Source: Escherichia coli
GTDB lineage: Bacteria; Pseudomonadota; Gammaproteobacteria; Enterobacterales; Enterobacteriaceae
Strand: one strand, 5' to 3'
NCBI RefSeq assembly: GCF_011045215.1
Contig: NZ_CP049201.1
DNA length: 64,000 bases
The translations under genes and the position numbers were made by a program. Position 1 is the first letter of the stretch; each line of letters starts with the position of its first letter. Below the pieces are notes generated by a model. The model was not told the DNA's origin. It saw nothing but the letters and a program-made list of their open reading frames with translations, and ran no database searches. Shown here one piece after another: positions 1 to 7,986 of this stretch.

Positions 1-3000
1 TGCAGCGGAACACGGCTCGTCGCTGGTGATCAGCGGCACCACCACCGCGCCCGTCGGGCAGACGCTGACCCTGACCTTAAACGGCAAAACCTACACCACC
101 ACGGTGCAGACGGGCGGTAGCTGGAGCTACACCCTCGGCAGCGCCGATGTCACCGCGCTGGCGGACGGCAACGCCTACGTGATTAACGCCTCGGTGAGCA
201 ATGCCATTGGCAATACCGGCAGCAGCAATCACACCATTACCGTCGATCTCAGCGCCCCGGCGATGGGTATTAATATCGATTCCCTGCAAGCCGACACTGG
301 CCTTAGCGCCAGCGACTTTATCACCAGCGTCAGTCCGGTGGTGGTCAACGGCTCGCTCACCGCCGCGCTTGCCAGTAACGAGACGGCGCAAATAAGTATC
401 GACGGCGGCACAACCTGGACCACGCTTACCGTTACCGGCACGACCTGGCGCTATAACGACAGCCGCACGCTGACCGATGGCAACTATCTCTATCAGGTGC
501 GGGTGATTGACGCAGCGGGCAACGTTGGCGCGACCGACAGCCAGAATGTGGTGATCGACACTACCGCGCCAGATCCCGCGGTGAAAACCATCGCCATCAG
601 CGCGATCACCACCGATACGGGCTTGATCACTAACGATTTTGTCACCAGCGACACGACGCTTGCGGTGAGCGGCACGCTGGGCGCGACGCTTTCTGCCGGT
701 GAGTTCGCGCAAATCAGTATCGATGGCGGCACCACCTGGCAGAATTTGTCGGTTAGCGGTTTGACCTGGAGCTATCTTGACGGGCGTACGCTGACCGATG
801 GCAACTACAACTATCAGGTGCGGGTTATCGACACTGCCGGAAATATCGGCGCGACCGCCAGCCAGATAGTCACTGTGGATACCACCGCGCCGCTGGCGAG
901 CAAAACCATCGCCATTGCGAGCATCAGCGATGACACCGGGTTAAGTAGCAGCGATTTTGTTACACGCGACACCACGCTGACCGTGCGCGGCACGCTCGGC
1001 GCGGCGCTTGCCGCCGATGAACGGGCGCAAATCAGCCTCGACGGCGGCGTTACCTGGACTACGTTAACCGTTATCGGCACCAGCTGGAGCTATGCCGATG
1101 GTCGCACGCTTACTGACGGCACCTGGAACTACACGGTGCGGGTGGTGGATCTGGCTGGGAACGTTGGGCAGACCGCAACGCAAAACGTGGTGGTCGATAC
1201 CACCAGCCCGGAAGCGGCGAAAAGTATCACCATTACCGGCATCAGCGATGACACCGGAACCAGCAGCAGCGATTTTATTACCAGCGACACCACGCTTACC
1301 GTGCGCGGCGTGTTGGGCGCGGCGCTCGGGGCTAATGAGTTCGCACAAATCAGTATCGACAACGGCGCAACCTGGGTGAATGTGACCGTTGCTGCAGATG
1401 GTCTGAACTGGAGTTATGTTGACGGACGCACGCTCACCAACGGCACCACCACCTGGCAGGTGCGGGTGGTCGATCTGGCGGGCAACGTTGGCGCAACCGG
1501 CAGCCAGTCGGCGCAGATCGATACCGTTAACCCGGCGCAGGTGTTGACCATCGCCAGCATCAGCACCGACACGGGGAGTTCGGCAACTGACTTTATCACC
1601 AGCGATACCTCGCTCACGTTGACCGGTTCGCTGGGAGCGGGGCTTGCCAGCGGCGAAGTGGCGCAGATTAGCCTTGATAGCGGCGCGACCTGGATCACGC
1701 TTACCACCAACGGCACGCAGTGGACTTACACCGACAGCCGCACGCTGACCGACGGCAGCTACGTTTATCAGGTGCGGGTGCTGGATCTGGCGGGGAACAC
1801 CGGCCCGGTGGTATCGAAAACGGTGGTGGTCGATACGATTAACCCTACCGCCACGCCAGGTATTGTGTCGTATACCGATGATGTCGGGCAGCGGCAGGGG
1901 ACATTAAGCAGTTCGCAGGCCACCGACGACACTACGCCGCTGCTGAACGGTGTACTTTCCGCGCCGCTTGCCAGCGGTGAAGTGGTCTATCTCTACCGTA
2001 ACGGCCTGCTGTTAGGTGCGGTGACGATGGTCGGCGCGCTGAACTGGACCTACAGCGACAGCGGGCTGGTGAGCGGTGCCTATACCTACAGCGCGCGAGT
2101 GGTGGATTTGGCGGGGAATATCACCTCCTCCAGTGATTTTGTCCTGACGGTCGATACCTCTATTCCGACCACGCTGGCGCAAATCACCAGCCAGACCACG
2201 CGCGATACTACGCCGATTATCAGCGGGGTGATCACCGCCGTGCTTGCCAGTGGGCAGTATGTTGAAGTGGTGATCAACGGCAAAACCTACACCTCTGAAC
2301 CGGGCGGCGCGGTAGTGGTCGATCCGGCGCACAACACCTGGTATGTACAGTTGCCGGATACCGATGCGCTGACAGTTTCCGCGACCGCCTATACCGTTAC
2401 TGCGCAGGTAAAAAGTTCGGCGGGTAACGGCAATAACGCCAATATTAGCAACGGCACGGTGACGGTTAACGCGGCGATTGATTACACACCGACCTGGACT
2501 ACCGCCAGCAAAACCACCGCCTGGGGGTTGACCTACGGCCTCGACTCGCACGGGATGTGGACGGTGCTGGCAAACCAGCAGGTAATGCAATCGACTGACC
2601 CACTCACCTGGTCGAAGACCGCGCTGACGCTGTATCAGAGCGGCAACAACTACGCCACCAGCTCCATTGCCGATTACGACCGTAACGGCACGGGCGATCT
2701 GTTTATCACCCGTGATGACTACGGTACGGGCTATATTAACGGCTTTACCAATAACGGCGATGGCACCTTTTCCAGCGCTATTCAGGTCACCGTCGGCACC
2801 CTGACGTGGTACGGCTCGATCGTGGCATTTGATAAAGAGGGCGACGGCTATCTCGACTTCTGGATTGGCGACGCGGGCGGGCCGGACTCCAACACCTTCC
2901 TGTGGAACAACGCAGGTACGCTGGTAGGTAACTCCACCACGTCGAACAGCGGCGGTAGCGCCACGGTGGGCGGGGCGGTGACGGGGTATCTTTCGCTCAA

Positions 3001-6814: not shown

Positions 6815-7986
6815 ACGGACAACTGCAATACAACCGTGGCCTGACTGAACCCCGCCTGCCGCGTTCGGCGCTGGCGGTACGCGTTACCGCTGTGATGCTG
6901 CTCTGTTTTCTCGGCTGGGCGTGGTACTTCCAGCTTGATGAAGTCACCACCGGCAGCGGCACGGTAGAACCTTCCGGGCGCGAACAGGTGGTGCAGTCGC
7001 TGGAAGGCGGAATTCTGTATCATCTGAACGTGAAAGTTGGCGATATAGTTGAACAGGGCCAGCCGCTGGCGCAGCTTAACCGCACTAAAACGGAATCCGA
7101 CGTCCAGGAAGCGATGTCGCGGCTGTACGCTGCGCTGGCAACCTCGGCGCGGCTGCGGGCGGAAGTGAGCAATAAACCGCTGGTCTTCCCTGACGAACTG
7201 AATAAATTCCCCGAACTTATCGAGTCGGAAACGGCGTTGTACAACACTCGCCGCGACGGGTTGAACAAAGCCACCACCGGGCTGACGCAGGGGATTAGCC
7301 TGGTCAACCGTGAACTGGCGATGACCCAGCCGCTGGTGAAACAGGGGGCGGCGAGCAGCGTCGAAGTGCTGCGCCTGCAACGCCAGGCCAATGAACTGGA
7401 AAACAAACTCAGCGACGTGCGCACGCAATACTACGTTCAGGCGCGCGAAGAGTTAGCAAAAGCCAATGCGGAAGTGGAAACCCAGCGTTCGGTGATCCGT
7501 GGACGGGAAGACTCTCTCACCAGGCTCAACTTTACCGCGCCGGTGCGAGGCATTGTTCAGGATATTGATGTCACCACGGTTGGCGGCGTCATCGCCCCCG
7601 GTGGTAAACTGATGACCATCGTGCCGCTGGATGAGCAACTGCTGATTGAGGCAAAAATCTCCCCGCGCGATGTGGCGTTTATCCATCCGGGGCAAAAATC
7701 GCTGGTGAAAATAACTGCCTACGATTACTCCATCTACGGCGGCCTGCCGGGAGAAGTAGCGGTGATATCACCAGACACCGTGCAGGATGAAGTGCGGCGT
7801 GATGTTTATTACTATCGGGTGTACATTCGCACTTTCAGCAACCATCTGGAAAATAAACATAAACAGCAGTTTCCGATATTTCCCGGTATGGTGGCGACGG
7901 TCGATATCCGCACCGGCAAAAAAAGCGTGCTGGATTATCTGTTGAAACCCTTTAACAAAGCACAGGAGGCGTTGCGCGAACGATGA
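6811..7986 (+). CDS. Type I secretion membrane fusion protein (HlyD family)
   Basis: 391 aa; N-terminal single TM segment, long coiled-coil region, C-terminal beta domain; ATGA overlap with the upstream ABC gene. Confidence 0.9.

Follow-up and report, generated by a model that had tools for sequence, protein, structure and literature searches.

The downstream part of the siiEA (O-island 28) locus in Escherichia coli: a giant RTX-type adhesin gene with type I secretion genes next to cueR

The window analyzed here is a 64,000-nucleotide stretch of an Escherichia coli genome (contig NZ_CP049201.1), the first 7,986 nucleotides of which contain the 3' part of a giant adhesin gene, an ABC exporter gene, and a gene for an HlyD-family membrane fusion protein (MFP), followed by the backbone gene cueR. 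The following features were found in this region:

2..4648, + strand: 3' 4.6 kb of the giant adhesin gene siiEA (last 1,548 codons and stop), open from the window edge
2..2491, + strand: Ig-like "extender" modules, one truncated and seven complete (Big_13, Ca_tandemer, PDB sequence matches)
2-259, + strand: truncated Ig-like module
260-571, 572-892, 893-1210, 1211-1534, 1535-1846, 1847-2167, and 2168-2491, + strand: complete Ig-like modules 1-7
2492..3901, + strand: distal "head" with a Ca2+-loop FG-GAP/VCBS beta-propeller and a beta-sandwich, CRTAC1/integrin-alpha-like (FG-GAP_3, AF2 model)
3989..4327, + strand: RTX nonapeptide (beta-roll) region (HemolysinCabind, GGxGxD motifs)
4328..4645, + strand: uncleaved C-terminal type I secretion target domain (TIGR03661, T1SS_VCA0849)
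4652..6814, + strand: type I secretion system (T1SS) ABC permease/ATPase, 720 aa (hlyB28 of O-island 28; TIGR03375, ABC_membrane and ABC_tran)
4652..5110, + strand: N-terminal, catalytically dead C39-like domain (CLD) of the ABC exporter (no Cys, AF2 fold matches)
6811..7986, + strand: HlyD-family MFP, 391 aa (hlyD28; TIGR01843)
7887..7982, + strand: last 32 codons of the MFP gene, forming the deletion scar in K-12-type genomes (alignment to K-12)
7983..8390, + strand: cueR, backbone gene (NF007590, 308 bits), whose ATG overlaps the MFP stop codon

The adhesin frame is open from base 2 to a TAG at 4646-4648, comprises 1,548 codons with no start within the window, and corresponds approximately to aa 5378-6925 of the 6,925-aa protein of the closest genome. 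It is collinear with the annotated siiEA of NZ_AP042570 and 97.9% identical to it. A preliminary description of this DNA had proposed a giant adhesin with at least seven Ig-like repeats of ~105 aa, and this is borne out by one truncated and seven complete modules ending at aa 86, 190, 297, 403, 511, 615, 722, and ~830, the complete ones being 104-108 aa long (318-bp period by TRF). Modules 1-5 share 52-65% pairwise identity, against 27-41% between modules 6-7 and the others. Pfam Big_13 matches seven stretches (E=1.6e-71), and the NCBIfam model Ca_tandemer is also well above its cutoff (E=1.9e-43; 146.8 bits against 50). By PDB sequence search, the repeats are akin to the Ca2+-rigidified modules of MpIBP RII (4p99, E=7e-27) and SiiE (2yn3, E=2e-9), and the window adhesin thereby shows the tandem array of Ca2+-stabilized Ig-like extenders of RTX fibrillar adhesins.

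The region downstream of the repeats had been called non-repetitive, a view that does not hold, as it contains at least five FG-GAP calcium loops of the DxDxDG type (aa 891, 1006, 1068, 1121, and 1171) as well as RTX nonapeptides. The head has an FG-GAP_3 match (E=1.1e-19), and its AF2 model (pLDDT 85.9, pTM 0.89) retrieves CRTAC1 (9etn) as the best fold match in the PDB (E=4e-14), followed by integrin alpha chains. This confidently modeled propeller is located between the extenders and the beta-roll, near the distal tip, and is the putative ligand-binding part of the protein. CRTAC1/integrin-like heads are also present in giant adhesins of Enterobacter, Serratia, Acinetobacter, Pseudomonas, and Bartonella apis. 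The RTX region scores just above the HemolysinCabind cutoff (24.0 bits against 23), matches the RTX part of CyaA by sequence (7rah), and resembles CyaA RTX blocks (6sus) and PrtC in fold. It is followed by the T1SS_VCA0849 domain (37.5 bits against 17.6; aa 1443-1545 of the window adhesin), so that the C-terminal combination of beta-roll and uncleaved T1SS signal seen in RTX fibrillar adhesins is present as well.

The two downstream genes encode T1SS components, in agreement with the preliminary description. The ABC exporter, in which both ABC_membrane and ABC_tran domains are present, aligns over its full length to HlyB (7sgr) and belongs to the LssB subfamily (TIGR03375, 836 bits against 693, aa 10-703). 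The MFP belongs to TIGR01843 (328.7 bits against 208.65), and its C-terminal ...DYLLKP..EALRER motif is common to the orthologs. The C39-like domain suspected at the N-terminus of the exporter was also recovered: Pfam Peptidase_C39 remains below threshold there (19 bits against 22), residues 1-160 contain no cysteine, with Ala10 aligned to the catalytic Cys position of PCAT1, and the AF2 model of the domain (pLDDT 80) finds its best fold matches among C39-like domains (3b79, TM 0.76; HlyB 3zua and 7sgr; PCAT1). The exporter therefore has a C39 fold without catalytic cysteine, which defines a CLD. The genes are closely packed, although the overlapping stops and starts reported before apply only to the ABC/MFP and MFP/cueR junctions (both ATGA), the ABC start lying 3 nt past the adhesin stop.

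A C39-type fold at the N-terminus is also common to bacteriocin exporters of the PCAT type, and the exporter has sub-threshold matches to bacteriocin and HlyB models, both of which might suggest that the ABC and MFP proteins form a bacteriocin, protease, or hemolysin exporter whose genes merely adjoin that of the repeat protein. Homology searches, which the preliminary description had named as the check on this point, did not link the pair to such a system. The scores for the PCAT family (TIGR01193, 250 bits against 524), the HlyB subfamily (TIGR01846, 387.5 against 725.6), and the PrtD-type model (307 against 510) are all far below their cutoffs, unlike the LssB score, and the CLD has no cysteine. 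Moreover, neighboring genes are coupled, either by ATGA overlaps or by a gap of 3 nt, the adhesin has its own T1SS target domain, and the complete ybaT-cueR interval contains no toxin, acyltransferase, or bacteriocin gene. The order adhesin (head)-ABC-MFP is the same in about 30 loci of other genera, including Enterobacter, Cedecea, Lelliottia, Pluralibacter, Rahnella, Erwinia, and Rosenbergiella, with identities of 67-73% for the MFP, 67-75% for the ABC exporter, and 42-56% for the head. On the basis of the family scores, the missing cysteine, and the syntenic triad, the unrelated-exporter explanation was rejected and can be considered effectively refuted.

Comparison with complete E. coli genomes revealed that at least 80% of positions 1-8400 is present in 957 of 5,426 genomes, O157:H7 included, with a best identity of 97.8% over this range. 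This part of the window is collinear with the annotated order siiEA-T1SS ABC-HlyD-cueR and 97.8-97.9% identical to it; positions 1-7986 thus represent the downstream two-fifths of the siiEA or O-island 28 (OI-28) locus of E. coli. Both the closest genome and O157 have the order ybaT-TolC-family outer-membrane protein (OMP)-siiEA (20.8 kb)-ABC-MFP-cueR, and siiEA is uninterrupted (6,925 codons) in the closest genome. No outer-membrane gene is present within 1-7986, as previously stated, because the window begins inside the adhesin gene, leaving the 5' ~16 kb of this gene and the OMP gene outside. The accompanying suggestion that TolC is used fared less well: both of the full-length syntenic loci have a dedicated TolC-family gene (451 aa; TIGR01844, 413.6 bits against 225) annotated directly before that of the adhesin, and therefore housekeeping TolC need not be invoked. 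This strain presumably carries the tolC-like gene and an undisrupted 5' 16 kb of siiEA as well.

The NCBIfam model for SiiEA (NF047714, "BapA-related adhesin SiiEA") spans the N-terminal 229 aa only, a part outside the window, and gives 509 bits (cutoff 425) on the full-length homolog of the closest genome; we infer SiiEA membership of the window adhesin from orthology with this collinear, 97.9%-identical gene. A further source (PMC3256949) is relevant for the SiiEA annotation only. The N-terminus of the full-length homolog carries a BapA_N domain (PF22783, 68 bits against 27; NF033677, 71.6 against 35) and then, at aa 130-152, a hydrophobic stretch rich in Gly and Ala, and may serve as a retention module; its first 250 aa had no meaningful match to the PDB by sequence. 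It also has a TAAG at aa 97-100; in Vibrio, PAAG and AAAG are LapG sites (PMC6890996). No lapG/lapD-like genes were found in the locus of the closest genome, and nothing obvious of lapD/lapG size was seen among the ORFs downstream of the MFP gene in five loci of other genera.

The gene name siiEA, the old annotation as an "adhesin for cattle intestine colonization", and the detectable homology of the repeats to SiiE Ig domains could also be taken to mean that the protein is the E. coli ortholog of SiiE of Salmonella SPI-4, working with a SiiAB-type proton-channel accessory. This is highly improbable: the ybaT-cueR interval holds only four genes (for the OMP, adhesin, ABC exporter, and MFP) and shows neither siiA/siiB-like genes nor a siiCDEF organization, the N-terminal prefix domain is of BapA type, the repeats are closer to MpIBP RII than to SiiE among solved structures, and the NCBI name itself says "BapA-related". 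SPI-4 SiiE orthology was thus rejected on the missing siiA/siiB-like genes, the BapA-type N-terminus, and the closer MpIBP RII relationship.

Taken together, we consider it very probable (roughly 0.93) that the siiEA/OI-28 locus encodes a dedicated T1SS with a single substrate, an RTX-type fibrillar adhesin of ~6,900 aa. The locus has already been described and experimentally tested, and does not represent a new kind of system. The RTX-family exoprotein island that had been suggested at this place in O157-type strains is indeed OI-28 of O157:H7 (tolC28-rtxA28/rtxB28-hlyB28-hlyD28; Z0608, Z0609, Z0615, Z0634, and Z0635; also siiEA), which occupies the same ybaT-cueR site with the same gene order. 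By tblastn, the O157 proteins are 99.3% (ABC), 99.5% (MFP), and 99.0% (adhesin head) identical to those of the window, the DNA identity over 1-8400 being ~95%, and O157 has one Ig module (~320 bp) fewer within the span of the window. A TAG at codon 1462 interrupts the O157 adhesin gene, whereas the part visible in the window is intact. The O157 literature speaks of two RTX proteins because the gene carries this nonsense codon; the "two RTX adhesins" are halves of one split gene, which bears on the reading of the published rtxA28 and rtxB28 mutants.

The locus is an experimentally shown colonization factor of enterohemorrhagic E. coli O157:H7 and O145:H28. According to a report dated December 2025 (PMC12758282), it drives epithelial adherence in O157, deletion of tolC28, rtxA28, rtxB28, hlyB28, or hlyD28 each lowers Caco-2 adherence and mouse colonization, RstA binds upstream, and Ca2+ induces expression. 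Older O157 annotation ("RTX family exoprotein/toxin") and, in part, the same report refer to RTX toxins, and the protein does have RTX repeats and a T1SS signal, as would be expected if the product were an RTX cytotoxin. Nevertheless, there is very little probability that it is a cytotoxin and not an adhesin: the RTX block is short, more than 90% of the protein consists of MpIBP/SiiE-type Ig-like extender modules in addition to the propeller head, the locus contains no activating acyltransferase gene, and the phenotype described in that report is loss of adherence, not of cytotoxicity.

Whether the adhesin is functional in the present strain is a separate matter. The siiEA genes of O157 ATCC 43894, O157 FRIK2069, and O55:H7 DEC5E are annotated as pseudogenes, one E. 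coli genome has an internally deleted island, and complete loss of the island has occurred in 82% of E. coli; the intact-looking 3' part could accordingly be a decaying remnant of a gene disrupted upstream of the window, yielding no functional fiber. We regard this as unlikely, since the 1,548 visible codons and the ABC and MFP genes are all intact, the full 6,925-codon gene is uninterrupted in the closest genome, and the dN/dS ratios are very low (0.02-0.03 against the closest E. coli; 0.016-0.025 against E. whittamii). The locus is under purifying selection.

The comparison with K-12 confirmed that the island block is missing there between ybaT and cueR, as had been noted. The island is foreign in composition (55-61% GC), yet the idea that it was inserted upstream of cueR relative to K-12 is not supported, because K-12 bears a deletion scar. 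Positions 7887..7982, just upstream of cueR, are the only part of the island kept in K-12-type genomes; the match to the window starts at 7887 in all 33 sampled island-negative genomes, and a 19-letter protein stretch of the MFP end is still readable in the K-12 remnant. One common deletion junction of ~25.8 kb was found in 4,458 of the 5,426 genomes. Thus, the K-12 site is not virgin: the ~96 bp before cueR are a fossil of the MFP 3' end, and, given that so many genomes share this scar, the "empty" site must be younger than the adhesin island. "O-island acquisition" has the wrong polarity at the ybaT-cueR site.

In island-less E. coli (82%, K-12 among them), the stretch that directly precedes cueR and contains its ribosome-binding site is the fossil of the last 32 MFP codons. 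For island-bearing strains, a tentative and on balance doubtful proposal is that cueR, through translational coupling at the ATGA, could form the final cistron of an adhesin-T1SS operon activated by RstA and Ca2+, in which case the amount of the copper-efflux regulator would follow adhesin expression. A promoter/terminator scan of 4400-8700 gave three promoter-like sites against 2.5 expected, none of them upstream of cueR, and is uninformative on cueR transcription.

Based on the domain content and on homologous systems, the adhesin might work as follows. The unfolded protein would contact the ABC exporter by way of its RTX region and the uncleaved signal at its C-terminus, with the inactive C39-like domain probably acting as a substrate-docking module, as in HlyB. 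The ABC-HlyD complex would then recruit the TolC-family channel whose gene directly precedes that of the adhesin, and the chain would be threaded outward with its C-terminus first. Outside the cell, folding by Ca2+ may turn the ~60 Ig-like extenders, together with the FG-GAP propeller head and the beta-roll, into a stiff, extended stalk, while the BapA-type N-terminal prefix would stay behind and keep the fiber on the cell, placing the likely ligand-binding head near the distal tip.

Several known systems resemble this locus. Salmonella BapA (bapABCD) resembles siiEA in its N-terminal prefix domain (seen in the full-length homolog), in having Ig-like repeats, and in being served by a dedicated T1SS that includes a TolC-like protein of its own; however, in BapA-type loci, for example those of S. 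enterica arizonae and Citrobacter, the tolC-like gene lies between the adhesin and ABC genes, whereas it is upstream of the adhesin gene in the siiEA locus, and the proteins are only 56-61% (MFP) and 47-49% (ABC) identical to those of the window. The hemolysin T1SS (HlyB/HlyD/TolC with HlyA) is alike in its CLD-containing ABC exporter, its HlyD-family adaptor, and a substrate with RTX repeats and an uncleaved C-terminal signal, but the siiEA substrate is an adhesin, its exporter is of the LssB and not the HlyB subfamily, and its channel is a dedicated TolC-family protein instead of housekeeping TolC. The four-part architecture (N-terminal retention domain, Ca2+-stabilized Ig extenders, ligand-binding region, and beta-roll with T1SS signal) is that of MpIBP (Marinomonas), LapA (Pseudomonas), and FrhA/CraA (Vibrio); in addition, the C-terminal domain of siiEA belongs to the CraA (VCA0849) family, and its exporter has an inactive C39-like domain, as in RTX fibrillar adhesin systems. 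LapA-type systems differ in that the siiEA locus lacks lapG/lapD, and the putative ligand-binding region of siiEA is a CRTAC1-like FG-GAP propeller, whereas MpIBP, LapA, FrhA, and CraA have sugar-binding, peptide-binding, or vWFA domains.

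Region 1-8400 of the window matches a locus annotated as 'siiEA: BapA-related adhesin SiiEA', a type I secretion permease/ATPase (ABC), an HlyD family membrane fusion protein (MFP), and cueR; at least 80% of this region is present in 957 of 5,426 complete E. coli genomes, with a top identity of 97.8%. The gene order in the closest genome (NZ_AP042570) is ybaT - TolC-family outer-membrane protein (OMP) - siiEA - ABC - MFP - cueR. There, siiEA is 20,778 bp long and encodes 6,925 aa, the first codon of the window corresponding to approximately aa 5378, and its N-terminus contains the SiiEA-defining NF047714 (509 bits vs 425) and a BapA prefix-like domain. 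O157 ATCC 43894 has the same organisation and the locus is O-island 28 (OI-28), in agreement with the preliminary description, which had tentatively placed an O157 RTX-exoprotein island at this site. In a December 2025 paper, the OI-28 genes were named tolC28, rtxA28, rtxB28, hlyB28, and hlyD28; deletion of each led to less Caco-2 adherence and mouse colonisation, complementation worked for the three T1SS genes, and upstream binding by RstA and induction by Ca2+ were found (PMC12758282). PMC3256949 cites an earlier annotation that reads 'adhesin for cattle intestine colonization'. Thus, the system is already known and functionally characterised; the feature is genuine and had been outlined correctly, and it is not new. 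By-products of the analysis are a deletion scar in K-12, a nonsense split in O157, and a CRTAC1-like head.

No stop interrupts frame 2 of the plus strand between base 2 and the TAG at 4646-4648 (1,548 codons), and the frame lacks a start, so the window opens within a gene. The main features are as follows.
Ends at aa 86, 190, 297, 403, 511, 615, 722, and ~830, plus strand: Ig-like modules of the adhesin, one truncated and seven complete, 104-108 aa long
aa 891, 1006, 1068, 1121, and 1171, plus strand: DxDxDG calcium loops in the adhesin FG-GAP region
4652-6814, plus strand: ABC protein, 720 aa, TIGR03375, LssB-type T1SS subfamily
6811-7986, plus strand: MFP, 391 aa, TIGR01843 (329 bits vs cutoff 209)

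These modules bear out the very large Ig-repeat gene proposed from the sequence. Pairwise identity is 52-65% among modules 1-5 and 27-41% between modules 6-7 and the rest. They match Pfam Big_13 (E=1.6e-71, 7 stretches) and NCBIfam Ca_tandemer (146.8 bits), and TRF reports a period of 318 bp. By sequence, the closest solved structures are Ca2+-rigidified extender modules from two proteins, an ice-binding adhesin of Marinomonas (4p99, E=7e-27; 5irb) and SiiE of Salmonella (2yn3, E=2e-9). Module number differs among strains, O157 being short by one ~320-bp module relative to the window (~385-1375, the most alike repeats). A 347-aa antisense ORF (minus strand, 2012-3055) within the adhesin gene is most likely a by-product of high-GC, repeat-rich coding sequence.

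The C-terminal 718 aa had been called non-repetitive, which was not borne out: besides the DxDxDG loops, they contain FG-GAP repeats (E=1.1e-19) and RTX nonapeptides (HemolysinCabind, 24.0 bits vs cutoff 23), and their C-terminus is formed by a type I secretion target domain (TIGR03661, 37.5 bits vs 17.6). An AlphaFold2 model of this part, built with 30 homologues as input, was confident (pLDDT 85.9, pTM 0.89). Its top fold match was murine CRTAC1 (9etn, E=4e-14, target TM 0.60), followed by integrin alpha propellers, and its C-terminal portion resembles the RTX beta-rolls of CyaA and PrtC.

The ABC protein scores 836 bits against TIGR03375 (cutoff 693) and stays under the curated cutoffs of the HlyB (387/726), PrtD (307/510), and bacteriocin (250/524) exporter models. 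Cysteine is missing from its N-terminal 160 aa, which match Peptidase_C39 below threshold (19 bits vs 22) and have Ala10 aligned at the position of the PCAT1 catalytic Cys. A model of residues 1-165 (AF2, pLDDT 80) was closest to 3b79 (TM 0.76), a C39-like domain from a toxin exporter of Vibrio, then to the HlyB CLD (3zua, 7sgr) and the PCAT1 peptidase domain. Together, these data confirm the suspected C39-like domain, which is catalytically dead. Assignment of the MFP to the HlyD type was likewise upheld by its TIGR01843 score. ATGA overlaps occur at the ABC/MFP and MFP/cueR junctions; coupling by overlapping stops and starts therefore stands for ABC/MFP but not for adhesin/ABC, where 3 nt separate stop and start.

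No OMP gene lies within 1-7986 because the window starts inside the adhesin gene. The preliminary description was right on this absence, but the use of TolC that it presumed need not be invoked: both the closest genome and O157 ATCC 43894 have a dedicated TolC-family gene upstream of the adhesin (451 aa and TIGR01844 414 bits in the former), and this gene (tolC28) is required for adherence in O157 (PMC12758282).

In O157, codon 1462 of siiEA is TAG (nt 8554 of the ATCC 43894 locus), against GAG in the closest genome. Hence the 'two RTX proteins' of the 2025 paper, Z0609 and Z0615 (rtxA28 and rtxB28), are two halves of a single siiEA gene. A pseudogene flag is carried by siiEA in three strains, two of O157 and one of O55:H7 (DEC5E), the last being flagged as frameshifted.

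The block is absent from K-12, as proposed, but the K-12 site was not one never occupied. There, ybaT is followed by a 124-bp spacer and cueR, and, apart from a single 1-nt deletion, the final ~96 bp of the spacer (about 5897-5993 of the K-12 locus) correspond to window 7887-7982, the 3'-terminal part of the MFP gene. Downstream of this deletion, the remnant can still be read as a 19-residue stretch, comparable to the 20-residue MFP C-terminus; the C-terminal motif is kept in orthologues of other genera, far from any cueR. The left breakpoint lies ~30 bp past the ybaT stop, so ~25.8 kb is missing in K-12. The match begins at exactly 7887 in 33 of 33 sampled island-negative genomes, and the contiguous K-12 junction was found in 4,458 of 5,426 genomes. 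The common 'empty' state of K-12 and most E. coli is a single secondary deletion and no virgin site. Directly upstream of cueR in K-12, the sequence, Shine-Dalgarno included, is a relic of the adaptor gene's final 32 codons. Another decay state is seen in E. coli SCPM-O-B-8794 (2051-8135 of its locus: ybaT, a 203-aa tolC28 fragment, a 72-aa ABC fragment, a near-whole MFP, cueR, and ybbJ), whose island is internally deleted with loss of the adhesin.

The island is compositionally foreign (GC 55-61% in 1-8000, 40-56% in the following 6 kb), and its linkage to cueR is restricted to Escherichia in a one-genome-per-species scan, so it was acquired once. Compared with NZ_AP042570, identity is 97.9% in the island region (1-10853) and 99.3% in the backbone at 30000-42000 (22-34 kb further on); dS in island genes is ~0.08-0.11. 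With the same closest genome, the lower island identity suggests recombination, and the island allele seems to have a history apart from the flanking chromosome. Selection on island genes is strongly purifying (dN/dS 0.02-0.03 vs the closest E. coli and 0.016-0.025 vs E. whittamii).

A second small islet (8394-10950) lies between cueR and ybbJ, which abut in K-12. Among 5,426 E. coli genomes, 1,235 carry it, a little above the OI-28 count, and it is also missing in SCPM-O-B-8794.
Within 8394-10950: hypothetical protein, 67 aa
Within 8394-10950: protein of 140 aa, annotated as lipoprotein in O157
Within 8394-10950: YadA-anchor trimeric autotransporter, 338 aa
Within 8394-10950: hypothetical protein, 120 aa
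~10869-10950: REP-like element

By definition, an RTX fibrillar adhesin combines a retention module at its N-terminus with Ig-like extenders, a ligand-binding region, and a beta-roll plus T1SS signal, and the mechanism here is most likely the standard one for such adhesins. The 5' 16 kb of siiEA and the OMP gene are known from other genomes, and for this strain the mechanism relies on homologues. The CLD-bearing ABC protein would recognise the adhesin C-terminal signal and RTX region, an ABC-HlyD-TolC28 conduit would form, and the chain would exit threaded, C-terminus first; these three steps follow from family membership. Folding outside the cell would be driven by Ca2+, the BapA-type N-terminal domain would hold the fibre on the cell, and the CRTAC1-like propeller, a putative ligand-binding head, would be displayed near the distal tip. 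The adherence role and Ca2+ dependence are supported by the O157 experiments. TAAG at aa 97-100 of the full-length homologue resembles, in sequence, the LapG di-alanine sites PAAG and AAAG of Vibrio (PMC6890996).

Near-identical copies of the MFP, the query in the one-genome-per-species scan, occur in E. coli, E. whittamii, and Escherichia sp. E1V33, and beyond Escherichia the hits form two groups. Group 1 comprises ~30 loci in other genera (Enterobacter, Cedecea, Lelliottia, Pluralibacter, Trabulsiella, Rahnella, Erwinia, Rosenbergiella, and others) with adhesin-ABC-MFP in unchanged order and co-varying identities (MFP 67-73%, ABC 67-75%, propeller head 42-56%), and in no case does cueR lie within 6 kb. 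The shared order and co-varying identities across genera show that the ABC/MFP pair is a conserved cassette with this adhesin type. A dedicated exporter, as originally proposed, fits this conserved triad; the bacteriocin and protease model scores (250/524 and 307/510) and the cross-genus cassette make an unrelated bacteriocin or protease exporter very unlikely. The more distant group 2 (MFP identity 56-61%) includes S. enterica arizonae, Citrobacter, and Buttiauxella, and its loci differ in having the bapABCD order, with a tolC-like gene between the adhesin and the ABC gene.
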